Shown here: one piece after another, positions 1 to 18,935 of the stretch
Layout of the letters: each line of letters opens with the position of its first letter
Position numbering within the stretch: the stretch's first letter is position 1
Assembly (NCBI GenBank): GCA_947307175.1
Contig: CAMZIK010000001.1
Location: 21,220-85,219 of the forward strand
Origin: an uncultured Clostridia bacterium
GTDB taxonomy: Bacteria > Bacillota > Clostridia > Oscillospirales > Ruminococcaceae
Length of the DNA stretch: 64,000 nucleotides
Direction: 5' to 3'
The notes under the pieces: model-generated
Databases searched by the model: none
What the model was told of the DNA's origin: nothing
Seen by the model: the letters and a program-made list of their open reading frames with translations, nothing else
Position numbers and translations under genes: made by a program

Positions 1-439
1 TGCTTATGTACAGGACGCCTATCTCGCTTTTGAGACTTCCGACGTCCTGTATTATTTTGTGTGTTTCGGTCTCTCTTATCGCAAAATCAAATTCGAGTGT
101 GTCGAACTGCTTTACCGTTTCGATGAATGCGTTGACAGCAAAGGTGTAATGCTGTGTCGAAACACCGAACTTTCGCTTCTTTTCCTTGTCTATGTATTTT
201 TCGCAGACAAGCTCATACTGCCTGAACAGCTGCCCTGCACTCTGTAAAAACTCCTCGCCCTCTGCTGTCGGAACAGCACCCTTGTGCGTGCGCAGGAAGA
301 TCTGTATGCCTATTTCCTTTTCAAGCTCATGAACAGCGTTCGTCAGCGTTGGCTGTGAGATGCCGAGACGTTCGGCTGCCTTGTTCATCGACCCGTATTC
401 CTTTATCATCAGTGCGTAGTTTATCTGTAAAAGTGTCAA
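1..439 (-). CDS. LysR-family regulator (MtaR/MetR-like), truncated by the window edge
   Basis: Not in the ORF track. Manual minus-strand translation from TTG 439 (RBS GGAG upstream) gives MTLLQINYALMIKEYGSMNKAAERLGISQPTLTNAVHELEKEIGIQIFLRTHKG..., a LysR HTH. The later segment STQHYTFAVNAF resembles SAQHYAFVVNAF in the LysR at 31017. Confidence 0.92.
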   Translation of the reverse strand, partial: MTLLQINYALMIKEYGSMNKAAERLGISQPTLTNAVHELEKEIGIQIFLRTHKGAVPTAEGEEFLQSAGQLFRQYELVCEKYIDKEKKRKFGVSTQHYTFAVNAFIETVKQFDTLEFDFAIRETETHKIIQDVGSLKSEIGVLYIS

Positions 440-533
440 GATGTCCACTCCTTTTTCCCGAATTTATCAAAAATGATAGCATGATTTTTCCCTCTTGTCA
501 AGGCTTGGGCAATATGCTTTTTTTATTGCATGA

Positions 534-550
534 TATAGCTTCGTTCTATA
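534..550. promoter_or_regulatory. LysR (MtaR/MetR-type) box TATAG-N7-CTATA
   Basis: TATAGCTTCGTTCTATA is a perfect T-N11-A-type dyad between the divergent lysR and metY-like genes. It resembles the streptococcal MetR/MtaR box. Confidence 0.7.
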
Positions 551-563
551 ACTGAGGCGTTTT

Positions 564-774
564 ATGATAACGATTTCTTATAATCTCACGCTTTGCGCAT
601 CTGAAATATTTCCTATGTTTGAACAAAACCATCGCAAACCTTTTATTATCCGATGTGAGAACGTTATCATCTTTTGCTGATAATACTCCTTGATATGCTG
701 TCTGCTGTGCGGAAACAGCCCTTAAAAGCGGTGGTTTGGCTGCCGTGTGCAAAGGTGCGTGATAACGATGTCAC
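564..774. promoter_or_regulatory. Three LacI-type operators (consensus GTGATAACGTTATCAC)
   Basis: 564-579 ATGATAACGATTTCTT (11/16), 655-670 GTGAGAACGTTATCAT (14/16), 759-774 GTGATAACGATGTCAC (14/16). Confidence 0.8.
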
Positions 775-783
775 GTTTTTTTG

Positions 784-812
784 TTGACCGCAGTGAACTT
801 TTCGGCTAAACT
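784..812 (+). promoter_or_regulatory. sigma70-type promoter of the first sulfur operon
   Basis: TTGACC-17 nt-TAAACT. Confidence 0.7.
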
Positions 813-861
813 GAACACATCGAAAGTCAAACCGAAATCAAAAACCGAAAGGAAGATAATC

Positions 862-2151
862 ATGGCAGAATTAAAATTTGACACCAAAAAGATAAAGGCA
901 GGCTACTCACCACTTGACAACAATCTTGCGATCTCGCCTCCGATCTATCAGACGACAGCCTACGATTTCAAGAACACCGAACACGCACAGAACCTGTTCA
1001 CCTACAAAGAGGCAGGCTACCTTTACACAAGAGTAGGAAACCCGACAGTCACCTATTTCGCAGAAAGAGTCAAGGCGCTCGATGGAGCAAAGAACGCAGT
1101 TGCAGTCGGCTCAGGTATGGCAGCTATCTCCTACACTCTGCTCAACCTCGCAGCCAAAGGCGGCACGATACTTGCTTCACCTTACCTCTACGGCGGAACG
1201 ATAGATGCCTTCGACAGACTGTTCCCTGAGCTTGGTGTGAAGATAAAGCTCACAGATGCAGTGCTTGATCCCGAAAAGCTCGATAAGGAGTTCACCGATG
1301 ACGTCAAGGCAGTATATGTTGAGTCGCTGAGCAATCCAAACGCTTATCTGCTTGATATTGATGCTATCTCAGAGGTCGCTCATAAGCATGGCGTTCCCGT
1401 AGTTGTTGACAACACCCTTGCAACACCTTATCTTTACAGACCTCTCGAGCATGGTGCCGACATCGTTGTATATTCCGCAACAAAGGCACTCACAGGTCAC
1501 GGCAACATCATAGCAGGTCTTATCCTCGACAACGGAGATATGAGCAAGTATACAAAAGAGAAGTATCCGCAGTTCTATGAGCCTATCGTAATGCTCGGCG
1601 GCAAAAGCACCGCAGATATTTTCCCTGACAACTTCTTCATCTTCCGTGCAACTCTTGTTTACCTCAATCTGCTCGGCGCAGCGCTTTCACCGCAGGACGC
1701 ATATCTGGGTATCATAGGTCTTGAAACTCTTTCGGAGCGTGTTGCAAAGCAGAGCGCAAATGCTGCAAAGATAGCAGCTTATCTGGAAAGCTCACCGGCT
1801 GTTGAGTGGGTGCGCCACCCAAGCCTTGCAAGCTACAAATTCAAGGAGCTTGCAGACAAGAACCTGCCAAACGGAGGCGGCGGAGTGCTTGCATTCGGAA
1901 TAAAGGGAACTCCTGAACAGGAAGCAGATTTCATCAATAACATCAAGCTGTTCCACTATCACGTAAATCTCGGCGATGCACGTTCACTGATAGTTGATTC
2001 GCCGAACACCACGCACAGCGAGCTGAGCGAGGATGAACTCAAGCTTGCGGATATTCCGCACAATCTCATCCGCATCTCAGCAGGACTTGAAGATGCAGAC
2101 GACCTTATCGCCGATCTTGAACAGGCTTTCAAGGTCGCAGGGCTGCTTTGA
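862..2151 (+). CDS. O-acetylhomoserine sulfhydrylase-like PLP enzyme (divergent MetY paralog)
   Basis: PPIYQTTAY, YTRVGNPT, VVDNT, YSATK (PLP Lys), NLGDARSL and IRISAGLE motifs. Start is ATG 862 after AGGAAG. Confidence 0.88.
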   Translation: MAELKFDTKKIKAGYSPLDNNLAISPPIYQTTAYDFKNTEHAQNLFTYKEAGYLYTRVGNPTVTYFAERVKALDGAKNAVAVGSGMAAISYTLLNLAAKGGTILASPYLYGGTIDAFDRLFPELGVKIKLTDAVLDPEKLDKEFTDDVKAVYVESLSNPNAYLLDIDAISEVAHKHGVPVVVDNTLATPYLYRPLEHGADIVVYSATKALTGHGNIIAGLILDNGDMSKYTKEKYPQFYEPIVMLGGKSTADIFPDNFFIFRATLVYLNLLGAALSPQDAYLGIIGLETLSERVAKQSANAAKIAAYLESSPAVEWVRHPSLASYKFKELADKNLPNGGGGVLAFGIKGTPEQEADFINNIKLFHYHVNLGDARSLIVDSPNTTHSELSEDELKLADIPHNLIRISAGLEDADDLIADLEQAFKVAGLL

Positions 2152-2185
2152 TGTATATACACTTATTAAAGGGGAGTAGATGAAC

Positions 2186-2725
2186 ATGGCAAAGAATAAG
2201 AATGAAAAAATACTGCTGCTTGTCCTCGCAGGACTTTTTGCAGCAATAATCACAGTATCAACAATGATGATACGCATACCTACCCCGACCAAGGGATATA
2301 TCAACCTCGGAGACTGCTTCGTGAACATCGCAGGCTGGTTGCTCGGACCGATATACGGCGGCACAGCAGCAGGCGTTGGTTCGGCGCTGTCCGACCTGTT
2401 CGCAGGATACACGGTATATGTTATCCCTACGCTTATCATCAAAGGCTTTATGGCAGTTGCAGCCTTTGCAGTCTATAAAGCGCTGAGCAAAAAGCTTCCC
2501 GGCCTCGTTGGCAGGATAGCATCGGCAGTTGTTGCTGAGATCATAATGATAGTCGGCTACGCAGTTTATGAATCGTTCCTTTACGGCTCAGTCACAACAG
2601 CACTCACAGGTGTCGCAGGAAATGTCGTTCAGGGCATCGGCGGCGTTGCATTCGGCGTACTGCTCTATGAAGGCGTTATCGCAAGGATACCTGCCGCAAA
2701 GAACCTTGCAGCAGTAAGAAAGTAA
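2186..2725 (+). CDS. ECF transporter S-component (HmpT/PdxU2/DUF1393-like)
   Basis: About 180 aa, highly hydrophobic, with IPTPTKGYINLGD and SALSDLFAGY motifs. The start was moved to 2186 for RBS spacing. Confidence 0.8.
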   Translation: MAKNKNEKILLLVLAGLFAAIITVSTMMIRIPTPTKGYINLGDCFVNIAGWLLGPIYGGTAAGVGSALSDLFAGYTVYVIPTLIIKGFMAVAAFAVYKALSKKLPGLVGRIASAVVAEIIMIVGYAVYESFLYGSVTTALTGVAGNVVQGIGGVAFGVLLYEGVIARIPAAKNLAAVRK

Positions 2726-2752
2726 AACCATAACGGAGAGGAAAGTATTAAA

Positions 2753-3811
2753 ATGAAAAAGAGGATCAGAGTTTTATCATTTGTTTTATCGGCAGTGCTT
2801 TTAGCCTCCTGCTCAGTCAGCGAGTCAAAGAGCGATTCTTCCAAGTCGGGCGACAGCTCATCGGCAAGCAGCTCAGGCAGCACCGACTATAAGTACGGCA
2901 AGATAGATATTCCCGGCAAGGACGGAGCGCTGTGCGGCGCACCGATCTATATCGCATACGAAAACGGATATTTTGCAGAGGAAGGTTTTGATGTAAACCT
3001 CATCTCTGCGGATTTTGAAACCAGGAAGATAGGTCTTAACAACGGCTCTATCCCGATAGTGAACGGAGACTTTCAGTTTTTCCCATCGATCGAAAACGGC
3101 ATCAACGTAAAGGTCGTTGACGGTCTGCACGAGGGCTGTATCAAATTCGCTGTAAAGCCCGATTCCGACATCAAAACTGTAGAAGACCTCAAAGGCAAGA
3201 AGATAGGCGTTGACGAGATAGGCGGCACACCTCATCAGGTGGCTTCACTGTGGCTCGAAAACGCCGGAATCTCTGCCGATGCATCAAAGGGCGAGGTAAC
3301 GTTCCTGCCTTATTCCGACGGCAACCTTGAATTTGAAGCACTTGAAAAGGGCGAGATAGACGTTGCGGCTCTGTGGGATCCGCTTGGCTCTATCCACGAA
3401 AAAGCAGGCGATGTGAAGATAATCTTCGATCTTGGCACAGACCCGTATTTCAAGGAGCATTTCTGCTGCTTCCTCTATGCGTCTACCAAAGTGCTTGAAG
3501 AAAACCCCGAAGAAGTCGCAGCGCTCCTCAGAGCTTATCGCAAGGCTCAGGAATGGATATACGAAAACCCAGAAAAGTCTGTTGATATAATCGTCAATAA
3601 AAAGTACGCATCTATTGAGGATAAGGATCTTGCAGTAAAGCTTGTAAAGAGCTACGGTTATCCTTCGGCAGACAAGCACAACGAGAACTGGGACAGCAGA
3701 GTAGAAAGCGATGTCAAGTATTTCGTTGACGGTCTTTCAAAGATCGGCTACTTAAAGAGCGACCCTGCTGATTTTGCAAAGAAGATCTATCAGAAAGTTG
3801 ATGTAAAATAA
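2753..3811 (+). CDS. ABC substrate-binding lipoprotein, SsuA/TauA/NitT family
   Basis: Lipobox LLASC, Ser-rich linker, APIYIAYENGYFAEEG and DLKGKKIGV motifs. Confidence 0.88.
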   Translation: MKKRIRVLSFVLSAVLLASCSVSESKSDSSKSGDSSSASSSGSTDYKYGKIDIPGKDGALCGAPIYIAYENGYFAEEGFDVNLISADFETRKIGLNNGSIPIVNGDFQFFPSIENGINVKVVDGLHEGCIKFAVKPDSDIKTVEDLKGKKIGVDEIGGTPHQVASLWLENAGISADASKGEVTFLPYSDGNLEFEALEKGEIDVAALWDPLGSIHEKAGDVKIIFDLGTDPYFKEHFCCFLYASTKVLEENPEEVAALLRAYRKAQEWIYENPEKSVDIIVNKKYASIEDKDLAVKLVKSYGYPSADKHNENWDSRVESDVKYFVDGLSKIGYLKSDPADFAKKIYQKVDVK

Positions 3812-3821
3812 GCCTTTTCGG

Positions 3822-3845
3822 AAGGGCGGCGCAAAAGCCGCCCTT
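3822..3845 (+). terminator. Intra-operon stem-loop (stabiliser or partial terminator) after the SBP gene
   Basis: AAGGGCGGC-GCAAAA-GCCGCCCTT, 9-bp stem. Confidence 0.55.
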
Positions 3846-3869
3846 TGAAATGAAGTTAGGAGAGATACT

Positions 3870-4952
3870 ATGAATGATGCTGCTGCACTTGAGCTGAAAG
3901 CTGTAAAGACAGCCGCTGAAAAAGAAAAGCCTGTCGTGGCATGGGGGTATAAGCATAACGGTTATTTTGCCCTCAAGCTTCTGCTGACCCTGTCGGGCTT
4001 TCTGATCGCAATTATCGTAAATATCACATTCCCTCAGAAAGCTGCTGTTGAGTTTAAGACCTATACGCTCAGCGTTTTCGGTCTCAATATCGACCTTACC
4101 ATAAACGATGCCTACATTTTTGTGCTGTTTGTCCTTATGCTCATCTATGGCGGCGCAGGCATAAGAGCGTTCTTTGTCAGGACAAGAAGAAAGCTGTACT
4201 GCAAGAACGCAGCCTTCCGCTTTGCGATCGGTATAGCTTTTGCCCTGTGGGACATCGGTGGAACGAAAATGCAGTGGTTTGCCCAGCCGTTTTTCCCAGG
4301 TCCTGCGCAGGTCATCGAAGCATACCTTGCCGACGGAGACTATGTTCTGCAAAACACGCTTTATTCTCTGAGACTCTATGCAGCAGGCTTCTCCTGCGGT
4401 GTTATCCTCGGAGTAGGTACGGGCATACTCATCGGCTGGTTCCCGAAAGTCTATTACTGGGTGTTCCCGGTGCTGAAGATAACAGGTGTCGTTCCGGCAG
4501 TTGCATGGATGCCGTTTGCACTTACGCTCCTGCCGAATTCATTCACCGCAGCGGTGTTCCTCATCGTTATCTGTGCGTGGTTCCAGATAGCTTTCCTCAC
4601 AGCGCAGGGTATCCAGTCAACACCAAAGCAGACCTATGAGGCAGCTCGTATACTCGGCAGCGGACAGCTCGGTCTGATAATCCATGTTGCTATACCGCAC
4701 GCTATGCCAAGCATCTTTACGGGCATCAGCTCGGCAAACGCAATGGCGTTCACAACGCTCGTAATGAGCGAGATGCTCGGTCAGCCCGGAGGACTCGGTT
4801 ACTATATCAACCAGTCAAAAGTCTGGAGCGCATACTACAAAGTGCTTGCAGCTATCGTAGTAATGGCAGTGCTTTTCTCGCTGATAAACCACTTTATCGG
4901 CATCATCAAAAAGCGCACTCTCAGGTGGCAGGAGGGAGTTCTGAAAAAATGA
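3870..4952 (+). CDS. ABC permease, SsuC/TauC family, with N-terminal membrane extension
   Basis: Multiple TM segments; EAA loop TYEAARILGSG...IHVAIPHAMPSIFTG. Confidence 0.88.
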   Translation: MNDAAALELKAVKTAAEKEKPVVAWGYKHNGYFALKLLLTLSGFLIAIIVNITFPQKAAVEFKTYTLSVFGLNIDLTINDAYIFVLFVLMLIYGGAGIRAFFVRTRRKLYCKNAAFRFAIGIAFALWDIGGTKMQWFAQPFFPGPAQVIEAYLADGDYVLQNTLYSLRLYAAGFSCGVILGVGTGILIGWFPKVYYWVFPVLKITGVVPAVAWMPFALTLLPNSFTAAVFLIVICAWFQIAFLTAQGIQSTPKQTYEAARILGSGQLGLIIHVAIPHAMPSIFTGISSANAMAFTTLVMSEMLGQPGGLGYYINQSKVWSAYYKVLAAIVVMAVLFSLINHFIGIIKKRTLRWQEGVLKK

Positions 4953-5728
4953 GCAGCAGTATAACCATTTCAGGTGTCAACCGTATATATACCGACACCG
5001 ACGGCAATAAGGTCGAGGCTCTGCACGATGTCGACCTTGAGATAAAGCCGGGGGAGTTCATATCGATAATCGGACCGTCAGGCTGCGGAAAGACAACGCT
5101 CCTGCGCCTTATCGCAGGGCTTGACAAGCCGCAGTCGGGAGAGCTTACGATAGATGACCGCAGGATAAAAGATGTCTCCACTGAGCGAGGCTATGTGTTC
5201 CAGCAGGGAGGTCTTTTCCCTTGGCTCACAGTCGAAAAGAATATCGCCTATGGCTTGAAGGCAAGAGGCGTTTTCAAGCGTGACAGGACAAAGGTAAAGG
5301 ACTATATCGAAATGGTCGGTCTTGAAGGCTTTGAGGGCGCATATCCACATCAGATCTCAGGTGGAATGGCGCAGAGAGTTGCTATCGCAAGGGCACTTAT
5401 CAACGACCCGAAGGCGCTTTTGCTCGATGAACCAATGGGAGCGCTGGATTCGTTCACCAGAGCCGACCTTCAGGATAAAATACTGGAACTGTGGAAGCGT
5501 GAAGGCACGACAATGATCCTTGTCACTCACGACATCGACGAGGCCATCTACCTCAGCGACCGCATAGTCATAATGACACCCAGACCAGGAAAGATCAGCA
5601 GCATCGTAAGTGTTGATCTTCCAAGACCACGCCATAGAGGCGGCACGGAATTTCTTGCACTGAGAAAGTCCATACTTGAATTTTTCGAGCTGGCACAGGC
5701 ACAGCCTCAGCCTGAATATATGATATGA
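4949..5728 (+). CDS. ABC ATPase, SsuB/TauB family
   Basis: Walker A GPSGCGKT, signature ISGGMAQR, Walker B LLLDEP, H-loop LVTHD. Ends PEYMI. ATG 4949 is the likely start. Confidence 0.92.
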   Translation: MSSSITISGVNRIYTDTDGNKVEALHDVDLEIKPGEFISIIGPSGCGKTTLLRLIAGLDKPQSGELTIDDRRIKDVSTERGYVFQQGGLFPWLTVEKNIAYGLKARGVFKRDRTKVKDYIEMVGLEGFEGAYPHQISGGMAQRVAIARALINDPKALLLDEPMGALDSFTRADLQDKILELWKREGTTMILVTHDIDEAIYLSDRIVIMTPRPGKISSIVSVDLPRPRHRGGTEFLALRKSILEFFELAQAQPQPEYMI

Positions 5729-5752
5729 TAGTTTTAAGGAGAGTAAAAGAAT

Positions 5753-6157
5753 ATGAAGAGATTGATTTTAGGTATCGCCGAGGCAATAGCAGCCCTTGTG
5801 CTTACAATAGGAGCGTTTACGTTCTTTAAGGCGTGCGGTGAACACGACGGTAAGTTTATGGCTTGCCACTGGGCACAGAACGCAGTTGTCCTTGTTGGCA
5901 TCGTGCTTACATTCCTTGCACTTGTGCGTATATTTATCCCCGAAGAGAAGATAAAAACAGGACTTGCGATAGGAGTTTTTGCGCTGTCCGTTTCTGTGAT
6001 CTTTATCCCAGGCACAGCGATAAACCTGTGCATGATGGACGATATGGCTTGCCATACGACATTCAAGCCTGCCGTGATAGTTGTTGCAGCTGTGACAGCA
6101 GTGATCGCTCTTGCTGATGTCATCGCAGGATATATAAAGGCAAAGGAATCAAAATGA
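5753..6157 (+). CDS. DUF4418-like small membrane protein with Cys/His motifs
   Basis: About four TM helices with ACGEHDGKFMACH and LCMMDDMACH motifs, upstream of a MacB-type permease/ATPase pair. Confidence 0.7.
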   Translation: MKRLILGIAEAIAALVLTIGAFTFFKACGEHDGKFMACHWAQNAVVLVGIVLTFLALVRIFIPEEKIKTGLAIGVFALSVSVIFIPGTAINLCMMDDMACHTTFKPAVIVVAAVTAVIALADVIAGYIKAKESK

Positions 6158-7356
6158 GCAGAAAAAAGCTGCTTTACCGCAGTATTGCAGGAAGACCGCT
6201 CAGGTCGTTATCCCTGATGTTCATATGTATCATAATGTCGGCGGTCGTATTCGGAGGAGCAGTTGTTTCCGCAAGTCTCAACAACGGGATAAACTGTCTT
6301 GAACAGCGTCTTGGTGCGGATATAATCGTTGTCCCCAAAAGCGCCTCCGAAAAGGTCGAACTTGAAAACATACTGCTTCAGGGTACGCCGGGGTATTTTT
6401 ATATGGACAAGTCTGTTGAGGATAAACTTTCTCAGACCGAGGGCGTAGATAAGCTGTCCGCACAGTATTTCCTTGTTTCCGCAAACGCAGAGTGCTGCAC
6501 CGTTCAGGTGCAGATAATCGGCTTTGATGATGATACTGATTTCTCAGTCAAGCCGTGGCTGAGCGAAGCATACAGCGGAAAGCTCGGACAGAATGAAATA
6601 GTTGTCGGCTCAGGACTCTCAACACGGGTAGGGCATACATTAAAGCTATACGGTGTTGAGTGCAAAACGGTCGGCAAGCTCGAATCAACAGGAACAGGAC
6701 TTGACACAGCGGTCTATACAACGAGCGATACTGTCAGAGGACTGATAAAAGCCGCAGGATCAAAGGGCATCTCCGTGCTTTCAAAGCAAAGCCCCGATGA
6801 TGTTATTTCCTCGGTCTATATAAAGGTCAAGGACGGATATGATATAGACGAGGTCGCTGCGAATATAAATCTCGGAATGGACGGCGTGCAGGCGGTGCGG
6901 ACAAAGTCGATGATAACAGGTACAGCCGATAAGCTGTCGGTCATCTCTTCAAGTGTAACGGTGCTTATCGCAGCAGTCTGGGTGCTGTCTGCAGTCATTA
7001 TGCTGATAGTCTTTGCAGCACTTGTGAATGAACGCAAAAGAGAATTTGCCGTTCTGCGTACAGTCGGCTTTTCAAGGCATCAGCTCGCAGGACAGATAAT
7101 GGCTGAAGCGGTCATCATCTGTTTTGCCGGAGCGATAACGGGAATAGCTGCCGCTGCGGCAGTCGTTTTCCCGTTCAGCAGGCTTATCGAAAGCAAGTCC
7201 GGTCTGCCGTTCCTCTCGCCTGATATACTGTCATCGCTTGGCTATGCTTTGATAGCATTTGTAGCAGTTATCGTGACAGGACCGCTCGCCTCGGTTTATT
7301 GCGCATACAGACTCAGCCGTGTCGATACGGGAAAGATACTCAGAGAAGGTGACTGA
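6154..7356 (+). CDS. FtsX/MacB-type ABC permease
   Basis: One N-terminal TM, extracytoplasmic domain (RLGADIIVVP, AECC), C-terminal ERKREFAVLRTVGF and three TMs. Confidence 0.85.
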   Translation: MSRKKLLYRSIAGRPLRSLSLMFICIIMSAVVFGGAVVSASLNNGINCLEQRLGADIIVVPKSASEKVELENILLQGTPGYFYMDKSVEDKLSQTEGVDKLSAQYFLVSANAECCTVQVQIIGFDDDTDFSVKPWLSEAYSGKLGQNEIVVGSGLSTRVGHTLKLYGVECKTVGKLESTGTGLDTAVYTTSDTVRGLIKAAGSKGISVLSKQSPDDVISSVYIKVKDGYDIDEVAANINLGMDGVQAVRTKSMITGTADKLSVISSSVTVLIAAVWVLSAVIMLIVFAALVNERKREFAVLRTVGFSRHQLAGQIMAEAVIICFAGAITGIAAAAAVVFPFSRLIESKSGLPFLSPDILSSLGYALIAFVAVIVTGPLASVYCAYRLSRVDTGKILREGD

Positions 7357-7360
7357 ATCC

Positions 7361-8041
7361 ATGCTTATTACAGCAAATAACATAACCAAAAGCTTTCGGC
7401 GCAAGGGCAGGGCAAAAAGTTCCGTTCAGATCCTGCAAAGCACAGATGTAAGCATACAAAGCGGTAATGTGTACGTTATCCTTGGACGATCAGGCAGCGG
7501 TAAAAGTACGCTGATAAATATCCTTTCAGGGCTGCTCTTGCCGTCAGGCGGAAGCGTTAAATATAATGATACCGATATTTACAGCCTCACCGACGGCGAG
7601 CTTTCACAGCTGCGCTGCAGGCGTGTAGGCTATATCCCGCAGGGACAGAGCGCAGTTGCAACACTGACCGTGAGGGAAAACGTCCTGCTGCCGTCTGCGG
7701 TCATAGGCGAGGGAAAAAGCTTTGCCAGAGCTGATGAGCTGCTAAAGCAGTTAGGTCTGAGCGAACTTGGTGATGCCAGCCCCACAGAGCTTTCGGGCGG
7801 AGAACTGCGCAGGCTTGCGATAGCAAGAGCGCTGATAAATTCACCCGAAGTTATATTTGCCGATGAGCCGACCAACGACCTTGACGAAGAAAACTCACGC
7901 CTCGTCTTTGAACAGCTGAAAAAAGCAGCCGAAAGCGGCGCAGCTGTTGTCATAGTTACACATGAGCTTTTTGCATACGAGTTTGCCGATACTGTCTACC
8001 GTATGCAAAGCGGAAGTCTGATAAGAGAGAAGGGTCAATAA
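7361..8041 (+). CDS. ABC ATPase (LolD/MacB type)
   Basis: GRSGSGKST, LSGGELRR, FADEPT, VTHE. ATG at 7361. Confidence 0.9.
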   Translation: MLITANNITKSFRRKGRAKSSVQILQSTDVSIQSGNVYVILGRSGSGKSTLINILSGLLLPSGGSVKYNDTDIYSLTDGELSQLRCRRVGYIPQGQSAVATLTVRENVLLPSAVIGEGKSFARADELLKQLGLSELGDASPTELSGGELRRLAIARALINSPEVIFADEPTNDLDEENSRLVFEQLKKAAESGAAVVIVTHELFAYEFADTVYRMQSGSLIREKGQ

Positions 8042-8042
8042 A

Positions 8043-8531
8043 ATGGTAATAAGAAGAGCGAAGATAAGCGATCTTGACGAGATAGCAAGCATAGAAAGCG
8101 TCTGTTTCCCACCCGATCAGGCGGCCGGCAGAAAGGCTTTTGAAGAGCGCCTTTCGACGTTCCCACGCCATTTTCTGCTGATGTGTGACGAGTACGGAAA
8201 GATTGTTTCTTTCATTGACGGCTTCACCACCGATCAGCCCGACCTAACTGATGAGATGTACGCTGTCTCAGAGCTTCACAATGAAAACGGAGCATGGCAG
8301 ATGGTGTTCGGTCTGTGTACGCTTCCTGATTACAGACAGAGAGGTTTTGCTCAAAGACTGCTCAAAGAGTTTATCAGAACGGCAAAGTCCGAGGGCAGAA
8401 AGGGAGTTGTCCTCACCTGCAAGCAGCCGCTTATCAAGTATTATGAAAAGTTCGGCTTTGTCAGCGAAGGCGTCACCGAAAACTCCGTCATCGGTGGAGT
8501 GCAGTGGTATCAGATGCGCAGAGTATTATAA
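8043..8531 (+). CDS. GNAT N-acetyltransferase
   Basis: Motif A LCTLPDYRQRGFAQRLL and YYEKFGF. Confidence 0.85.
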   Translation: MVIRRAKISDLDEIASIESVCFPPDQAAGRKAFEERLSTFPRHFLLMCDEYGKIVSFIDGFTTDQPDLTDEMYAVSELHNENGAWQMVFGLCTLPDYRQRGFAQRLLKEFIRTAKSEGRKGVVLTCKQPLIKYYEKFGFVSEGVTENSVIGGVQWYQMRRVL

Positions 8532-8548
8532 AAAAGAATGACTATTGT

Positions 8549-8589
8549 GACCTTGCCGCAGAGCTTCTTCTGCGTCAAGGTCTTTTTTC
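8549..8589 (+). terminator. Rho-independent terminator
   Basis: GACCTTG-CCGCAGA...TCTGCG-TCAAGGTC followed by TTTTTT. Confidence 0.75.
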
Positions 8590-8616
8590 TGCCCAAGAAA
8601 ATTAACAATTCCGACA

Positions 8617-8645
8617 TTGACAGCATTGAAACGATATGATAGAAT
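8617..8645 (+). promoter_or_regulatory. sigma70 promoter of the lacI-like gene
   Basis: TTGACA-17 nt-TAGAAT with extended TG. Confidence 0.8.
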
Positions 8646-8692
8646 ATCATAGTAATCTGATATGAAAACTATGTTTGGAAGGAGGCAGCATC

Positions 8693-9766
8693 ATGTCACT
8701 CAAGGAAATAGCGCAGATGACAGGGGTTTCCGTGTCAACGGTCGGAAGGATACTCAACGATCCCAAGCACAAATGCTCAAGTGATGATGTCCGCAGAAAA
8801 GTGCTTGAAGCGGCACGGCAGATAAACTATATACCCAATGCAAATGCACGCAATCTGAAATCAGGCGGCAGCAGAGGCGATGAGATATTCAGTATAAACA
8901 TTCTGCTCACAAGGTTTGCAAACGAGGCTGCCGACCCGTTCTACGATGAACTGCTCATGATGCTTGAAAAGGAGCTTCGTAACAGCGGCTGCATTATCGG
9001 TCATGTCTGGCACAGTGCAGAGTTTTCAGAGGAAAGACCCGGCAGAGCCGATAAGCTCGATGAGCTGATAGATGAGCTGTATAATGAAAAAGAGCATAGA
9101 TCTGACGGCCTTATAATCATAGGCAAGGTCACACGCAGAGCGCTGCGCAGGCTGAAGCTAAAAGAGAAAAACATCGTTTCTATTAACCGTAACTCTACAA
9201 ATTACGAGGTCGATGAGGTGCTTTGTGACGGAAGCAGGATCGCACACGATGCGGTCGCTTATCTTGCACGCCTGGGGCATACGAAGATAGGCTATGTCGG
9301 CGACTGCCACAATGAGTCACGCTTTACAGGCTATCAGGCAGCACTCGCAGACCTGCATTTAGTACCCGATCTCGATTATGTTTTCGATACAAAGCCCAAC
9401 GAGACAAACGGACTTATCGCAAGCGAGTATTTCAAAGGGCTTGCCGATCCGCCGACAGGCATATATTGTGCAAACGACATTCTTGCTATCGGCATGATAA
9501 AAGGATACAGCAAGCGCAGGCAAAAGGGGATCATGCCGTCTATAATTTCGAGTGATGATATCGACGCAGGACAGTATACAAAACCTATGCTGACAACGAT
9601 CTCACTTCCAAAGGCGGATATGGTCAGATTTGCGCTGATGCTGCTTCTGGACAGGATAAAGGGCGGTCACAAGATAGTATCACGGCTTGAGCTTGAAGGG
9701 ACGCTTATCATTCGTGAAAGCTGCCGCAATTACGGCGAAATGACCGAGCCTGAATACTACATCTGA
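8693..9766 (+). CDS. LacI/GalR-family transcriptional regulator
   Basis: HTH MSLKEIAQMTGVSVSTVGRILN, hinge YIPNANARNL, periplasmic-binding-fold core, IRESC. Ends PEYYI. ATG 8693 follows GGAGG. Confidence 0.93.
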   Translation: MSLKEIAQMTGVSVSTVGRILNDPKHKCSSDDVRRKVLEAARQINYIPNANARNLKSGGSRGDEIFSINILLTRFANEAADPFYDELLMMLEKELRNSGCIIGHVWHSAEFSEERPGRADKLDELIDELYNEKEHRSDGLIIIGKVTRRALRRLKLKEKNIVSINRNSTNYEVDEVLCDGSRIAHDAVAYLARLGHTKIGYVGDCHNESRFTGYQAALADLHLVPDLDYVFDTKPNETNGLIASEYFKGLADPPTGIYCANDILAIGMIKGYSKRRQKGIMPSIISSDDIDAGQYTKPMLTTISLPKADMVRFALMLLLDRIKGGHKIVSRLELEGTLIIRESCRNYGEMTEPEYYI

Positions 9767-9793
9767 CGAATTTTTATTGAATATGATATACTC

Positions 9794-10002
9794 GTGATAA
9801 CGATGTCATATCAAGGCATCAAGCACCTTATACGGCGCATTGCAGAATAGCTGGAACGGCCGTATATAAGACGTGACAACGTTATCACAAACCAAACGCT
9901 TTTAACTTATAATTTACATATGGGTTACTTTTTCTTCGTATGATCGCCCCTGATAACGCTGCAAACGGAAAGGTAATGCACATGCCGTGATAACGTTATC
10001 AC
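9794..10002. promoter_or_regulatory. Three LacI-type operators upstream of the mccB-mccA-nif-like operon
   Basis: 9794-9809 GTGATAACGATGTCAT, 9873-9888 GTGACAACGTTATCAC, 9987-10002 perfect palindrome GTGATAACGTTATCAC. A half-site TGATAACG lies at 9951. Confidence 0.85.
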
Positions 10003-10011
10003 ATATTGAGA

Positions 10012-10040
10012 TTGACTTGTACGAAGTTTTTGTTTATGAT
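10012..10040 (+). promoter_or_regulatory. sigma70 promoter of the mccB operon
   Basis: TTGACT-17 nt-TATGAT. Confidence 0.75.
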
Positions 10041-10086
10041 AATATCATAGCAAGCCGATAGGTAATATAGGAAAGGAAAGATAAAT

Positions 10087-11247
10087 ATGAGTTACAAAAG
10101 CATAGACACAGCCCTGATACACGGAGGAATATCAATAGATGAGCGCACAGGCGCAGTTAATGTCCCTATCTACCAGACCTCTACATTCAAGCAGGACGGT
10201 CTCGGAAAGATGAGAGGCTATGAATATTCCAGAACAGGCAACCCTACCCGTGAGGCGCTTGAGGCGCTTATCGCAGAGCTTGAAGGAGGCTATGCAGGAT
10301 TTGCCTTCGCAAGCGGTCTTGCAGCGGAAACAGCAGTCCTCAGCCTGCTTCATTCGGGCGACAGAGTGCTTATCTCGTCGAATGTCTACGGCGGAACGTT
10401 CAGATTGCTCAACAATGTCTTTGACCATTTTAATATAAACTATACTATCTCCGATACCGAGAACCCGGAAGCGTTTGAAAAGGACATCACACCTGATGTC
10501 AAGGCGGTGCTTCTTGAAAGCCCTGCAAACCCGCTGATGACTGTTACCGACATCAGAAAGATCGCCGAGATAGCCCACGCACACGACCTTCTCGTTATTG
10601 TGGACAACACATTCATGACACCTTATCTGCAAAGACCGATAGAACTTGGCGCAGACATCGTTGTCCACAGCGCAACTAAATATCTTGGCGGACACAGCGA
10701 TGTAGTTGCAGGTCTTGCAGTAACAAAGACCAGAGAGCTTGCCGAAAAGATAGCGTTCATTCAGAACTCCACAGGCGGCGTGCTCCCTCCGTTTGACAGC
10801 TTCCTGCTCATAAGAGGAATAAAGACGCTCGGCGTAAGACTTGACAGACACGTTTCAAACGCTCAGGCAGCCGCAAAGTTCCTCTCCGAACACAGCGCAG
10901 TCAAGAGCGTGCATTATCCAGGACTTCCGACAGACAAGGGATATGAAGTCAACAGACAGCAGGCAAAGAACGGCGGCGTGATGATCTCCTTTGAGCTTAA
11001 AGACGGCTATGATATAGAAAAGTTCTTTGAAAGTCTCCAGCTTGTAACGCTTGCCGAGAGCCTCGGCGGAGTAGAGTCGCTCGTGTGCCACCCTTCTACA
11101 ATGACCCACGCATCTATCCCCGAGGAGATACGCAAAAAAGTCGGCATAACCGACGGACTGATAAGACTTTCGATAGGCATCGAAGACATCGATGATATTC
11201 TTACCGACATCGAGCAGGCTATAAACAATAGTAAGACGGAGAGGTAA
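10087..11247 (+). CDS. mccB: Cystathionine gamma-lyase (MccB/YrhB-like)
   Basis: YEYSRTGNPTR, VVHSATKYLGGHSD and AESLGGVESL motifs; adjacent to an MccA-like gene. Confidence 0.8.
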   Translation: MSYKSIDTALIHGGISIDERTGAVNVPIYQTSTFKQDGLGKMRGYEYSRTGNPTREALEALIAELEGGYAGFAFASGLAAETAVLSLLHSGDRVLISSNVYGGTFRLLNNVFDHFNINYTISDTENPEAFEKDITPDVKAVLLESPANPLMTVTDIRKIAEIAHAHDLLVIVDNTFMTPYLQRPIELGADIVVHSATKYLGGHSDVVAGLAVTKTRELAEKIAFIQNSTGGVLPPFDSFLLIRGIKTLGVRLDRHVSNAQAAAKFLSEHSAVKSVHYPGLPTDKGYEVNRQQAKNGGVMISFELKDGYDIEKFFESLQLVTLAESLGGVESLVCHPSTMTHASIPEEIRKKVGITDGLIRLSIGIEDIDDILTDIEQAINNSKTER

Positions 11248-11252
11248 TTAAA

Positions 11253-12158
11253 ATGCTTTATGAGAATATGCATAAGCTCATCGGCAATACGCCGCTGGTC
11301 GAGCTGGTAAATATGGGGGTCTCCCCCAATGTACACATCTTTGCAAAACTTGAAATGTATAACCCTTCGGGCAGCGTCAAGGACCGCATAGGCGAGTATA
11401 TGATAGCAGCCGCAGAGAAAGAGGGAAGACTTAAAAAAGGCGGTACGATAATCGAAGCTACCGCAGGCAATACGGGACTTGGCATCGCATTTGCGGCGCT
11501 GGGAAAATACAGAGTCATTTTTACAGTCCCGACTAAATTCTCCGCAGAAAAGCAGTCTCTTATGCGTGCGCTGGGTGCAGAGGTAATAAACACTCCGAGA
11601 GCAGAAGGAATGCTCGGCGCAGTAAGAAAAGCAGAAGAGCTGAAAGCACAGATACCCGGTTCTATTTCGCTGGAGCAGTTCAAGAACCCAAACAACCCGC
11701 TTGCTCATTATGAAACAACAGGCAGGGAGATCTGGGAGGATATCGGCGGAAAGGTGACACACCTTGTAGCAGGCGCAGGCAGCGGCGGAACATATACTGG
11801 CATCGTAAAGTATCTCAAAGAGCAGGATCCCAATGTTCAGGGCGTGCTTGCAGACCCAGAAGGCTCAACTATCGGCGGCGGAGAGCATTTTGATTACAAC
11901 ATTGAAGGCATAGGAAATGATTTTATACCCGATACAATGGATATAGGTCTTGTCGATAAGGTCGTCAAGGTAAACGATGATGAGGCATTCTCAACAGTTC
12001 GTGACCTTGCAAGGAACGAAGGCATCATCGCAGGCTCGTCATCGGGCGCAGCGATGGCAGCAGCCCTGAAGCTTGCAAAGACTCTCGACAGCGGAAACAT
12101 AGTAGTTGTGTTCCCCGACAGAGGAGACAGATATTTTAGTACGGGACTTTTTGGATAA
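11253..12158 (+). CDS. mccA: O-acetylserine-dependent cystathionine beta-synthase (MccA/YrhA-like, CysK/CysM family)
   Basis: SGSVKDR, EATAGNTG (not TSGNT), GAGSGGT and IEGIGNDF (not IQGIGAG) are characteristic of the MccA branch. Confidence 0.78.
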   Translation: MLYENMHKLIGNTPLVELVNMGVSPNVHIFAKLEMYNPSGSVKDRIGEYMIAAAEKEGRLKKGGTIIEATAGNTGLGIAFAALGKYRVIFTVPTKFSAEKQSLMRALGAEVINTPRAEGMLGAVRKAEELKAQIPGSISLEQFKNPNNPLAHYETTGREIWEDIGGKVTHLVAGAGSGGTYTGIVKYLKEQDPNVQGVLADPEGSTIGGGEHFDYNIEGIGNDFIPDTMDIGLVDKVVKVNDDEAFSTVRDLARNEGIIAGSSSGAAMAAALKLAKTLDSGNIVVVFPDRGDRYFSTGLFG

Positions 12159-12167
12159 GGTGATATA

Positions 12168-12539
12168 GTGAAATATCTGATAGCATTTGCAAGCTCCGAC
12201 GGAGCAAACATCGACAGGCATTTCGGAGCTGCCGAAAGATTTTATATAGCGCAGCTCGATACCGAAAAAGAGGATTGCGACATAACGGGATACCGTGATG
12301 TTACGCCTGCCTGCAGCGGCGGCGGACACGAGCTTTCCGCATTTGATGCGATACTCAATACACTTGCCGGAGTGTCTGCGATAGTTGCACAGCGTGTCGG
12401 TTACGGTGCACAGGACTTCATTTCGCAAAAAGGTATCGCCGTGTACCAGATGCCGCTTCAGATAGAGCAGGCGATATGTCTGCTCATGGAAGAAAAACAA
12501 TGGGAGGTTGACAAATGGCTATCTCATACGAAGAGCTGA
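12168..12539 (+). CDS. NifX/NifB-C-terminal-like (FeMo-cofactor biosynthesis family) protein
   Basis: IAFASSDG..IDRHFGAAERF and AQRVGYGA motifs. Confidence 0.85.
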   Translation: MKYLIAFASSDGANIDRHFGAAERFYIAQLDTEKEDCDITGYRDVTPACSGGGHELSAFDAILNTLAGVSAIVAQRVGYGAQDFISQKGIAVYQMPLQIEQAICLLMEEKQWEVDKWLSHTKS

Positions 12540-13396
12540 CGACAAAGCACCCATGCTTTGCACGAGGCGAACAAAGCAACAACGGACGAATACATCTACC
12601 AATAAGTCCGAGCTGTAATATCGAGTGTAAATTCTGCGAGCGCAGTTTTAACAGCTATGAGGTAAGACCGGGCGTGAGCCGCACGGTCATCACACCGCAG
12701 GAAGCGATAGATGCGATACGCAGAGCGCTGGAATTCTGTCCCGACATCAAAGTCGCAGGAATAGCAGGACCGGGAGATACACTTGCAAGCCCTTTCGCAC
12801 TTGAAACGTTCAGGCTTATCAAAAAAGAGTTCCCGAACCTCGTTAAGTGCATGAGCACAAACGGGCTTCTGCTTGCCGAAAAGGCGCAGGAGGTAATAGA
12901 TGTAGGCATCGACTCGCTGACCGTTACCGTCAATGCGGTAGACCCTGAGATCGAAGCACAGCTCAATGATGGTATCTACTGGCATGGAGAGCATATCACA
13001 GGAGTCGAAGCTGCAAAGATACTTATAGAGCAGCAGCTCAAAGGCATAAAGCTCGTCAGCGATGCAGGCATAACACTGAAAGTAAATACCGTGCTTGTAC
13101 CCGACATCAATGCAGACCATATCGAAACGATAGCAAAAACAGTTGCCGAAGCAGGAGCGAGCATCTATAACATCATTCCGCTTATCCCTCAGCACAAGCT
13201 CAAAGACAGCAGAGAGCCTGACTGTATGGAGCGTGAAAGAGCAATACTAAAAGCTTCAAAATACATAGATGTTTTCAGGCATTGTCAGAGATGCCGTGCC
13301 GACGCAGTCGGGATACCAGGCGGAGAAGATTTCGGCGACAGGATATATCTTGACCTGCAAAGGCTTTCAAGAAAAGATACATTTTCACACGGTTAA
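12515..13396 (+). CDS. nifB: NifB-type radical SAM protein (MarB-like; no fused NifX domain)
   Basis: HPC, CNIECKFC (CxxxCxxC), EVRP, AGPGD, TNG and CQRCRADAVG are all NifB motifs. Confidence 0.9.
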   Translation: MAISYEELTTKHPCFARGEQSNNGRIHLPISPSCNIECKFCERSFNSYEVRPGVSRTVITPQEAIDAIRRALEFCPDIKVAGIAGPGDTLASPFALETFRLIKKEFPNLVKCMSTNGLLLAEKAQEVIDVGIDSLTVTVNAVDPEIEAQLNDGIYWHGEHITGVEAAKILIEQQLKGIKLVSDAGITLKVNTVLVPDINADHIETIAKTVAEAGASIYNIIPLIPQHKLKDSREPDCMERERAILKASKYIDVFRHCQRCRADAVGIPGGEDFGDRIYLDLQRLSRKDTFSHG

Positions 13397-13413
13397 TAAA
13401 TTTATGGAGGTAA

Positions 13414-14277
<864 letters not shown>

Positions 14278-14294
14278 TAGTAGGAGAGTGCTTT

Positions 14295-15761
14295 ATGAGT
14301 AAAGTCAATTTGGATATACCTGAGGTCGAGATACGTGAGATACGTCTTGGCTCGATAACTGGCTTTCAGGGCACAGCAAAGGAGCTTGTTTCCGCTTGCT
14401 CCGGCTGCGGAAAGCTGAAAGACAAGAACCGTTCGTTCAGCCAGTGCCTCGGCTGCGGAACGTCAAACGCAGCTTGTACCCTGACGCTTATTCAGGACGC
14501 AGCGATAATCTCGCACGGTCCTGTCGGATGTTCGACCTGCCTGCATGAGTTTGCATTCACATACCGTGTAAATGCTTATCTGCGTCAGCTCGACCACCCC
14601 ACCCAGAGAAAGATATTTTCTACCAACCTTGAAGAAAAGGATACCATCTACGGCGGCGCAAAGAAGCTTGAATCCGCTATCCGTGAAGTGTTCAAGCGTG
14701 CAAAGCCAAAGGCTATCTTTGTCATCACCACCTGTGCAGCAGGCATCATCGGTGACGACGTTGAAAGCGTTACCAACGCCGCACAGAAAGAGCTTGGCAT
14801 ACCCGTCGTTGCAGTTTTCTGTGAGGGCTTCCGTTCAAAGATGTGGACATCTGGATTTGATGCAGGCTACCACGGCATCGCAAGAAAGATAATCAAGCCC
14901 GCAAGACAGAAAAGAAACATCATCAATGTCATCAACTTCTGGGGCAGCGACATTTTCCGTGAATGGTTCGCAGAATTCGGCTATGAGCCTAACTATATCA
15001 CCCCGTTTTCTACTGTTGACAGCCTGAGCTATTCCAGCGAAGCTGCACTTACCGTACAGGCTTGTTCGACTCTGGGCAGCTACCTCGGCGCAGCGCTGGA
15101 GCAGAACTTCGGCGTTCCTGAGATAAGAAATTCACCGCCGTACGGTATCGCCCAGACAGACCGCTGGTTCAGAGAGCTTGGTCAGATACTGGGCAAGGAA
15201 AAAGAGGTCGAGGAATTCCTCGCACGCAAGAAAGAGGAGTACCTGCCTAAGATAGAAGCCCTTCGTGAAAAGCTCAAAGGCAAGACTGCATACGTTACCG
15301 CAGGTGCATCTCACGGTCACTCGCTGCTTGCACTTTTGAAAGAGCTTGGCATGGATCCGCAGGGCGCAGCTATCTTCCACCACGATCCTCAGTACGACAA
15401 CGAGGACGAAAGGGCTGATACACTCAAACATACCGTTGAGGATTACGGCGATGTTCCGAATTACAACGTCTGCAACAAGCAGGAGTTTGAGCTTGTAAAT
15501 GTGCTCAACCGCATCAAGCCAGATATTTTGCTCGCAAGACACGGCGGCATGACCCTCTGGGGCGCAAAGCTCGGTATCCCGTCTCTGCTTGTCGGCGATG
15601 AGCATTTCGGAATGGGCTATGAGGGACTTGTAAACTACGGCGAGCGCATACTTGAAACTATCGAGAACGATGAGTTCGTAAAGAACCTTGCAAAGCACTC
15701 GTCCAATCCGTATACAAAGTGGTGGCTTGAGCAGGAGCCGTACACATTCTTGGGAAAGTAA
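14295..15761 (+). CDS. Group-IV nitrogenase-like alpha subunit (MarD-like)
   Basis: P-cluster Cys motifs LGC, HGPVGC and TTCAAGIIGDD; cofactor Cys in VQACSTLG; His in GDEH. The NifD Q191/H195 positions read W/F (CEGFRSKMWTSGF), by manual alignment. Confidence 0.85.
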   Translation: MSKVNLDIPEVEIREIRLGSITGFQGTAKELVSACSGCGKLKDKNRSFSQCLGCGTSNAACTLTLIQDAAIISHGPVGCSTCLHEFAFTYRVNAYLRQLDHPTQRKIFSTNLEEKDTIYGGAKKLESAIREVFKRAKPKAIFVITTCAAGIIGDDVESVTNAAQKELGIPVVAVFCEGFRSKMWTSGFDAGYHGIARKIIKPARQKRNIINVINFWGSDIFREWFAEFGYEPNYITPFSTVDSLSYSSEAALTVQACSTLGSYLGAALEQNFGVPEIRNSPPYGIAQTDRWFRELGQILGKEKEVEEFLARKKEEYLPKIEALREKLKGKTAYVTAGASHGHSLLALLKELGMDPQGAAIFHHDPQYDNEDERADTLKHTVEDYGDVPNYNVCNKQEFELVNVLNRIKPDILLARHGGMTLWGAKLGIPSLLVGDEHFGMGYEGLVNYGERILETIENDEFVKNLAKHSSNPYTKWWLEQEPYTFLGK

Positions 15762-15773
15762 AGGTGAATATAC

Positions 15774-17114: not shown

Positions 17115-17170
17115 AACAAAAAAGCTGCCGTTTTTCTGCGGCAGCTTATGCTTTAAAAGGAGATGATATT

Positions 17171-17503
17171 ATGCCGAAAGTAGCAGTTGCTACAAGTGAC
17201 GGGTTTGAGGTCAACGAGCATTTCGGTCACGCAAAGTTTTTCCGTGTCTACGAGCTTGGAGAAAGTGATTATACTTTTCTTGACGTCCGTGATGCAGTCG
17301 CAGTCTGCCAGCATAGCTTGGGTCATAACACGACCAGATTTGACAAGATAATCGAGCTGCTTTCCGATTGCGATGCCCTGCTCGTTCAGAAGATAGGGGA
17401 GGGCGCAGCCGCATATCTGATACAGAAAAATGTCAGAGTCTTTGAGGTCAGCGGCAGCATAGATGCAGTCCTGAAAAAGTTCATTGCAGACAAAATACTA
17501 TGA
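17171..17503 (+). CDS. Second NifX-like protein
   Basis: VAVATSDG..VNEHFGHAKFF and KIGEGA motifs. Confidence 0.85.
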   Translation: MPKVAVATSDGFEVNEHFGHAKFFRVYELGESDYTFLDVRDAVAVCQHSLGHNTTRFDKIIELLSDCDALLVQKIGEGAAAYLIQKNVRVFEVSGSIDAVLKKFIADKIL

Positions 17504-17546
17504 AAAAATAAGAGCGTTGTTCGTTTTGACAGCGCTCTTTTTTTAT
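17504..17546. terminator. Bidirectional terminator between convergent operons
   Basis: A-run, AAGAGCGTTGT...ACAGCGCTCTT, T-run. Confidence 0.75.
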
Positions 17547-18449: not shown

Positions 18450-18465
18450 CTGTCTTTCCTCCCGC

Positions 18466-18915: not shown

Positions 18916-18935
18916 TTTAAACTTCTCCCTTCGTC

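Follow-up and report, generated by a model that had tools for sequence, protein, structure and literature searches.

A LacI-Family Regulator among Sulfur Genes: Phased Operators, Activator-Like Promoter Geometry and a Putative CysK-Docking Tail

Introduction

LacI-family proteins are textbook sugar sensors. The stretch of DNA considered here, a window of 64,000 nucleotides from an uncultured Ruminococcaceae bacterium (contig CAMZIK010000001.1 of assembly GCA_947307175.1, positions 21,220 to 85,219), encodes a protein of this family (8693-9766) between two sulfur operons. The question raised by the locus is what such a protein does there: to which DNA it binds, whether it turns its targets on or off, and which signal it reads. 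The initial annotation of this DNA, made from the sequence alone, placed the gene between the operons, noted that its product ends with PEYYI, and proposed that the regulator may sense O-acetylserine through the cysteine synthase CysK instead of a sugar; the location of the gene and the C-terminus were confirmed. The answer at which we arrived, and in which we place about as much trust as doubt, is that the protein is a LacI-type activator that acts as CcpA does at ackA and is switched by CysK together with O-acetylserine.

The locus represents a real and conserved branch of the LacI family that regulates sulfur genes and has apparently not been described; its target promoters are built rigidly and in an activator-like manner, and its tail probably docks in CysK. 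A large comparative survey of LacI-family regulons mentions no sulfur, methionine or cysteine regulon (PMC4052901), and a search of the literature on the LacI family combined with sulfur or CysK yielded nothing relevant and no paper describing the regulator.

Operators and Regulon

The regulator consists of a LacI-type helix-turn-helix (PF00356, residues 2-49, E-value 8.5e-12) and a periplasmic-binding-protein-like effector domain (PF13377 and PF00532, residues 80-344), the architecture that defines the LacI/GalR family, and the closest solved structures are those of PurR, RbsR and CcpA. It reaches none of the NCBIfam equivalog cut-offs, the best score being obtained with RbsR (141 bits against a cut-off of 382), and the CcpA model TIGR01481 gives 74.7 against 442. 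As judged from these comparisons, the protein belongs to no named LacI orthologue group, be it RbsR, CytR, PurR, GalR, CcpA or others.

The operator is a 16-bp palindrome with a central CG, GTGATAACGTTATCAC. A search of the whole window with up to 3 mismatches allowed returned five matches (starting at 655, 759, 9794, 9873 and 9987) where 0.28 would be expected, and none of 100 shuffled controls contained five. These sites form two groups, upstream of metY-ssu and of mccB, in which the operators are designated O1 to O3 from the proximal to the distal one (Table 1). The initial annotation had counted six copies; five of them stand, with 0-3 mismatches, while the one at 564 has 5 mismatches and matches in its left half only. 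A 19-nt block at this place, TGATAACGATTTCTTATAA, is nevertheless invariant in 7 related sequences despite diverged flanks and is situated 91 bp upstream of the metY O2, in the place of a third operator; it is likely a functional distal site, possibly a composite one. The metY O2 itself is kept in a second copy of the locus (contig C46) and in related loci L002-L017 while the flanks diverge, and the mccB O3 is a better palindrome in relatives than in the window. Next to the middle operator, the two promoters (631-654 and 9889-9915) and those of several relatives share a short motif of similar sequence, CAAAC-n-CTTTTA..TAT.

As the initial annotation had called for, the motif was also searched for in the rest of the genome and in relatives. 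A weight matrix derived from the operator sites was run over the whole 3.59-Mb assembly, and its 12 best matches (at least 20.5 bits) all lie within five sulfur promoters: those of metY-ssu and mccB-mccA-nif-like on the window contig, the same two on contigs C46 and C142, and that of metNIQ on contig C4, where the proximal one of three sites ends 9 nt before TTGACG. The next-best matches score at most 17.7 bits, nearly all of them are inside open reading frames and none precedes a sulfur gene; a site on contig C84 (2 mismatches, 16.4 bits) lies within a 967-aa open reading frame and was discarded as a chance match. No sugar genes were found in the regulon, whether in the two operons or at the genome-wide site matches, and no operator scoring above 11 bits is present at the regulator's own promoter in the window (TTGACA-17-TAGAAT, 8617-8645).

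The copy of the sulfur locus on C46 and C142 is 80-87% identical in nucleotide sequence to positions 1-20400 of the window and provides a footprint: the operators, the -35 and the -10 elements are conserved and the DNA between them has diverged. This copy may be a true paralogue, the product of transfer, or a sign of co-binned strains. Contig C46 shares 99.7% identity with a contig from another assembly, which in turn has one more divergent copy.

A scan of species-representative genomes revealed orthologues with 42-87% identity in 57 loci, the hosts being Ruminococcus (albus, bromii, callidus), other Oscillospiraceae, Lachnospiraceae, Roseburia, Blautia and Olsenella. Cultured carriers include Ruminococcus albus KH2T6 and AR67 and Ruminococcus sp. 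YE71 (loci L010, L012 and L006). The orthologues are neighbours of metY, mccBA, nif-like genes, metA or SsuA-type transporters; in more distant clades, the regulator adjoins sulfate-type and NMT1-type ABC importers, or a sulfatase with its radical-SAM maturase. Sites recur beside these orthologues. In clade 1 the same palindrome is repeated in groups of two or three, and in clade 2 the operator is TGyAAACGTTTrCA, grouped at 85- and 104-bp spacing. Across 50 loci, helix-turn-helix residues 14-15 co-vary with operator positions 3-4: VS is found with AT or AC, VA with AA, YS with CA, and TA or MA with TA or CA.

The covariation bears on the possibility that another LacI-family protein such as CcpA binds the palindromes and that the neighbouring regulator is incidental. 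The clade-2 operator does fit the cre consensus. However, the clade-1 site departs from it, the sites occur only at sulfur genes beside the regulator, and, because residues 14-15 of the neighbouring LacI protein track operator positions 3-4, that protein rather than CcpA is the one expected to bind; an incidental regulator is scarcely credible. Taken at the level of sequence comparison, the assignment of the operators to the regulator and of the regulator to a sulfur regulon appears very probable. The sulfur regulon proposed in the initial annotation is thus well founded, given the restriction of sites to sulfur promoters, the 57 loci beside sulfur genes and the covariation of the recognition residues. 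The subfamily spans at least 20 clusters at 50% identity from Ruminococcus, other Oscillospiraceae and Lachnospiraceae. These bacteria are abundant degraders of fibre in the rumen and gut, and the targets of the regulator in them appear to be the salvage of methionine and cysteine, systems for sulfate, sulfonates and sulfatase, and nitrogenase-like reductase genes.

Promoter Geometry and the Sign of Regulation

At both promoters of the window the proximal operator ends 9 nt before the -35 element (774 to 784 and 10002 to 10012), and O1 and O2 are separated by 104 bp at metY (655 to 759) and by 114 bp at mccB (9873 to 9987), so that the gap and both spacings given in the initial annotation were borne out by the coordinates. 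The comparison was extended to 49 clade-1 target promoters from about 35 genomes (44 in fetched loci and five in the source genome). In 47 of them O1 ends 9 nt before a TTGACx -35 element that is followed by a 17-nt spacer and a -10 element, which places the centre of O1 17.5 bp upstream of the first -35 base, at about -52.5 in standard numbering. The exceptions are a promoter with a gap of 10 nt and one with a shift of 11 bp. The latter (L007, a Ruminococcus assembly, 11079-11130) has gained 11 bp between O1 and the -35 element through a tandem duplication, ATTTAGGTATT, which shifts the operator by exactly one helical turn and makes this promoter a natural phasing variant. O1 and O2 are 103-105 bp apart in the metY and ssuA promoters and 113-114 bp apart in those of mccB, distances that correspond to 10 or 11 helical turns; a third operator is often present, with O2 and O3 75-90 bp apart. 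In phylogenetic footprints of metY and mccB the operators and promoter hexamers are conserved and the spacers have diverged; the metY-ssu promoter of relatives likewise keeps its hexamers and varies in its spacer.

The gap is also kept where the -35 box is weak. In the R. bromii group, the importer promoter has TGGACT or TAGACT as a weak box, again 9 nt from the operator, and clade-2 promoters have the same distance from operator centre to -35 (a 14-mer and 10 nt) before TTGAAA, TTGAGA, TGGAAA or TAGAAA. Among about 60 proximal sites, not one overlaps the -35 element, the -10 element or the start site. A geometry exact to the base pair would make these promoters a clean system for studying contacts of the LacI fold with RNA polymerase.

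For CcpA, it was shown that a cre box upstream of the -35 element activates transcription in a manner that depends on the face of the helix, the lev operon, where the effect is anti-activation, being an exception (PMC3463425). Because the position of O1 matches this rule, activation is favoured, and we hold it to be somewhat better supported than an even guess would be. The activator-like spacing of the initial annotation is upheld as a description, by the 9-nt gap in 47 of 49 clade-1 promoters and the equivalent gap in clade 2, whereas activation would be no more than the somewhat likelier sign. The likeness to CcpA with HPr-Ser46-P at ackA, pta and ilvB of Bacillus subtilis extends to the LacI fold, the palindrome with central CG, the sites just upstream of the -35 element and, as proposed here, a protein as the main co-effector. 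The cre position at ackA is said to be -56.5, a value attributed to Turinsky et al. 1998. The differences are that HPr binds CcpA on the N-subdomain, whereas CysK would be engaged through a C-terminal tail, and that CcpA governs a carbon regulon, whereas the regulator described here has sulfur targets, sites upstream of the -35 element at its target promoters, and two or three phased operators per promoter.

A mechanism of the opposite sign would make use of the same regulator, operators and CysK docking. CysK would then act as a co-repressor in sulfur-replete cells and O-acetylserine would de-repress: CysK dimers would join the regulator dimers bound at O1, O2 and O3, and the loop so formed would block the upstream contacts of RNA polymerase. 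Such an arrangement is in line with the mostly repressing role of LacI-family proteins (PMC4052901) and with the CymR-CysK complex being a DNA-binding repressor (bioRxiv 10.1101/2024.09.19.614015). The -35 boxes at target promoters are near consensus, the spacings of 104 and 114 bp are whole numbers of helical turns as in looping systems, and a CysK dimer with its two sites would give otherwise dimeric regulators a means of looping DNA. However, the loop would leave the promoter outside, the positions where repressors act best are free of proximal sites, it is hard to see why repression would require exactly the same gap, to the base pair, in clades with different operators, and the geometry is retained even at weak -35 boxes. 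Repression by looping is possible but, in our judgment, rather unlikely.

The known case of GalR at gal of E. coli is close to what is proposed here. GalR, too, is a dimeric LacI-family protein that binds upstream of the -35 element (at OE), contacts RNA polymerase and activates or inhibits depending on phase; its two operators, OE and OI, are about 113 bp apart and are brought together in a loop. On the other hand, the gal promoters lie within the loop, formation of the loop depends on HU, and GalR responds to galactose and has neither a tail nor a protein partner.

It is also conceivable that the regulator only blocks another activator, such as the product of the LysR gene divergent from metY, as CcpA does with LevR at lev (PMC3463425). 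The metY operators indeed have this LysR gene (2-448, minus strand) and a palindrome, TATAG-N7-CTATA (534-550), upstream of them. However, the promoters of mccB, metNIQ, ssuA and clade 2 share the geometry with no LysR gene adjacent to them, and the distance that is fixed is that to the -35 element and not to another site; anti-activation of this kind is therefore very improbable. The palindrome at 534-550, situated between the LysR gene and the operators of metY, shows partial conservation in relatives and resembles the 'MET box' of streptococcal MetR/MtaR; metY may be under dual control by LysR and LacI-type proteins.

C-Terminal Tail and CysK

What signal could reach a protein with such operators? 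All full-length orthologues (43 aligned) end with [E/D/T]-Y-[Y/F/V]-I after a linker that varies and is 8-10 residues long. No variation is seen at Y355 and I357, conservation exceeds 90% at E354 and Y356, and the E-Y-Y-I tail is retained in proteins with as little as 44% identity. About 20 clusters of the top-scoring subfamily (representatives at 50% identity) carry the tail; lower-scoring sister groups of LacI proteins have none and end just after a conserved ...RESC. An isoleucine at the extreme C-terminus, preceded by aromatic or hydrophobic residues and a flexible linker, is what is expected from a tail that docks in CysK, as in proteins of the CysE, CymR and CdiA-CT type. According to a preprint, the tails of S. 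aureus CymR (...GYMFYI) and CysE (...DDYII) insert into the CysK active site, a CymR decapeptide binds CysK with a dissociation constant of 25 nM, and the terminal carboxylate is held by CysK residues T73, N76, T77 and Q145 (bioRxiv 10.1101/2024.09.19.614015).

In structure predictions of the full-length regulator with the CysK encoded at 26274-27206, the interface score (ipSAE) was 0.34 (0.46, 0.23 and 0.34 in the individual runs) compared to 0.00 in three controls, a value that is rated as weak support: of 80 solved complexes 58 attain the corresponding mark, and of 110 mismatched pairs 2 do so. On the regulator, confident contacts are confined to residues 353-357, and on the CysK side the contacts involve 74-78 (TSGNT), 98, 100-101, 124-125, Q147, 181-182, 210 and 218-229, i.e., the active site, including the GTGGT element. 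The MccA-like paralogue, which is 48% identical to CysK, scored 0.00 in three runs and gained no support as a partner of the tail. Although this zero is no evidence against binding, it indicates that the model discriminates CysK from the MccA-like enzyme. From the tail, the predicted complex and the CymR precedent, docking in CysK is probable. CysK as a sensor, first put forward in the initial annotation, hence gains from tail conservation, its restriction to the subfamily, the predicted entry into the active site and the CymR precedent.

The regulator has the LacI fold and lacks the Rrf2 winged helix, so that it would resemble CymR in mechanism and not in ancestry. With CymR-CysK of B. subtilis and S. 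aureus it shares the sulfur regulon and an aromatic-aromatic-isoleucine tail (YMFYI in CymR, PEYYI here), and the CymR tail enters the CysK active site in competition with O-acetylserine, whereas here the entry is a prediction. The two systems also differ in that the CymR-CysK complex represses while the geometry at the metY and mccB promoters suggests activation. Because the folds are different, the tails must be convergent. If the proposed mechanism is true, CymR-type sensing would have been invented a second time, independently and on a DNA-binding scaffold that is unrelated to CymR, and the regulator would be the second LacI protein under the control of a protein partner, after CcpA. Rrf2 proteins that end with YMYYI and DYII are encoded in the source genome as well, and thus CymR-type and LacI-type systems coexist in it.

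Alternatively, the regulator may sense a small molecule in its cleft (O-acetylserine, N-acetylserine, homocysteine or a sulfur compound), with the EYYI tail serving to inhibit or titrate CysK, to stabilise the protein or to mediate self-association. The cleft lends some substance to this idea, since many of its polar residues are invariant in the subfamily: a D-C-H-N-E-S loop (203-209) that is likewise invariant aligns with the corepressor-holding loop of PurR, and P82-F83-[F/Y]84 aligns with the aromatic pair of PurR. The suggestion in the initial annotation that O-acetylserine is sensed through CysK instead of a sugar is therefore not sustained as worded in its last part, the effector pocket being seemingly intact and strongly conserved. 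However, conservation of a tail to the residue, after a linker that varies, is typical of docking motifs, the tail matches known CysK-binding tails, the tail is predicted to enter the active site of CysK and not that of its paralogue, and similar tails are found on other sulfur proteins. A small ligand as the main signal is accordingly improbable, but the two inputs are not mutually exclusive. Two stretches of the effector domain, N-R-N-S-T-N-Y-E-x-D-E-V-x-C-D-G (residues 165-180) and G-D-C-H-N-E-S (203-209; about 9185-9320 of the window), are nearly invariant and unusual among LacI proteins; a metal or a sulfur compound might be bound by their invariant cysteine and histidine residues, which are close to the presumed cleft for the ligand.

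Similar tails are present elsewhere in the genome, on an SsuB-like ATPase (PEYMI), a NifH-like protein (ADYRI) and two Rrf2 regulators (YMYYI and DYII). The aromatic-x-Ile tails are encoded at 5714-5728, 14263-14277 and 18466-18480 of the window and at C1:19393-20346 and C18:952-1377 of the genome, and a hexapeptide-repeat transferase just upstream of the window, probably CysE, ends with FYII. In other genomes (L040 and L055), CysA-like ATPases of regulated transporters end with ...[LIM]FYI. A tentative and rather doubtful extension would be that CysK serves as a hub from which the sulfur status is passed on to many proteins simultaneously, through short C-terminal [aromatic]-x-Ile tails, namely to the LacI-type activator, two Rrf2 regulators, the SsuB-like ATPase, the NifH-like component and CysE. 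CysK dimers, with two sites each, would then cross-link regulator dimers on the phased operators, O-acetylserine would dissolve or re-model the looped nucleoprotein complex, and a CymR-like repressor sitting at the leader would form, with the LacI-type activator upstream, a push-pull switch that a single metabolite drives.

Proposed Mechanism

The steps of the favoured mechanism, CcpA-like activation switched by CysK and O-acetylserine, can be put as follows. The regulator would bind the 16-bp palindrome as a dimer, as co-localisation and covariation suggest, and the protein on the proximal operator would contact RNA polymerase and turn transcription on, in the way CcpA does from cre at ackA and pta, a step that is drawn from the geometry. 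The upstream in-phase operators would raise occupancy through cooperative binding or looping. The E-Y-Y-I tail would read the sulfur status, to judge from the tail itself, the predicted complex and the CymR precedent: when sulfur is replete and O-acetylserine is low, the tail would be plugged into the CysK active site, and upon sulfur shortage O-acetylserine would accumulate, displace the tail and free the regulator. The freed regulator would induce methionine and cysteine salvage, organosulfur import and the nitrogenase-like reductase.

Several points weigh against this mechanism. Sites at the regulator's own promoters in relatives have other offsets (5, 19 and 22 nt), and most target promoters have a good -35 (TTGACx) and a fair -10 element, which would suit a repressed promoter equally. 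Many of the compared genomes are close relatives and the promoter counts are not independent. The start sites are predicted (near 819 and 10047), four bovine rumen metatranscriptomes having yielded short contigs only and no 5' ends. The complex score is rated weak, and scores that pass at this level are more often wrong than right unless there is a strong prior. In CymR-CysK, the known case, it is the complex that represses. Finally, the conserved effector pocket may receive a small-molecule signal beside CysK or instead of it.

Genes and Other Features of the Locus

Table 1. Positions in the window of the regulator, its operators and promoters, its target operons and CysK.
Feature	Position	Strand	Remarks
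LysR gene	2-448	-	divergent from operon 1
O3-position element, metY promoter	564-583		left half-site TGATAACG, then invariant non-palindromic right half; 5 mismatches to GTGATAACGTTATCAC
O2 (middle operator), metY-ssu promoter	655-670		2 mismatches, 21.5 bits
O1 (proximal operator), metY-ssu promoter	759-774		2 mismatches, 24.3 bits; centre about -52.5
Predicted sigma-A promoter, metY-ssu operon	784-812	+	TTGACC (784-789), 17-nt spacer, TAAACT (807-812)
Target operon 1	862-8531	+	Pfam and NCBIfam
LacI-family regulator, 357 aa	8693-9766	+	PF00356 and PF13377; tail P-E-Y-Y-I encoded at 9749-9763
O3 (distal operator), mccB promoter	9794-9809		3 mismatches, 21.9 bits
O2 (middle operator), mccB promoter	9873-9888		1 mismatch, 26.6 bits
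O1 (proximal operator), mccB promoter	9987-10002		exact GTGATAACGTTATCAC, 27.0 bits; centre about -52.5
Predicted sigma-A promoter, mccB operon	10012-10040	+	TTGACT (10012-10017), 17-nt spacer, TATGAT (10035-10040)
Target operon 2	10087-17114	+	Pfam and NCBIfam
CysK (cysteine synthase A), proposed partner of regulator tail	26274-27206	+	homologues named cysteine synthase A

The first five genes of operon 1 encode an O-acetylhomoserine sulfhydrylase, an ECF S-component, an SsuA-like binding protein, a permease and the ATPase with the PEYMI end, and genes 6-9 encode a DUF4418 protein, an FtsX-type permease, an ATPase and a GNAT protein; the transport genes thus comprise an SsuA-like ABC importer and a DUF4418/FtsX-type ABC system. 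Operon 2 begins with a cystathionine lyase/synthase (MccB-like) and a CysK/CBS-like pyridoxal phosphate enzyme (MccA-like) and ends with five genes for NifX-like, NifB-like radical SAM, NifH-like (with the ADYRI end), NifD-like and NifK-like proteins. These five resemble a methylthio-alkane reductase. The papers on this enzyme name only one regulator of it, the proteobacterial LysR protein SalR, and none of the LacI type (PMC13474568). The LysR-type sulfur regulators, CysB and SalR of Rhodospirillum rubrum, are comparable to the regulator described here in that they control sulfur-scavenging genes, including those of a nitrogenase-like reductase, under sulfur limitation (PMC13474568), and differ from it in protein family and in the mode of sensing.

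An Rfam scan of positions 1-20000 found no element, which rules out riboswitch or T-box control of the metY and mccB leaders. Downstream of the -10 element, at about 10046-10075, the mccB leader (in relatives ...CATACCAAACAGATAGGAAATAT...) has been conserved between genomes at 70-90% identity. It contains ATAGGAA, which resembles CymR/Rrf2 boxes, and may provide the mccB promoter with a second input, a repressing one.

Contigs from bovine rumen metatranscriptomes with 93-100% identity cover metY, the SsuA-like gene, mccB and the nif-like genes (positions 1-17500), and it follows from this coverage that these genes or their close relatives are transcribed in the rumen.

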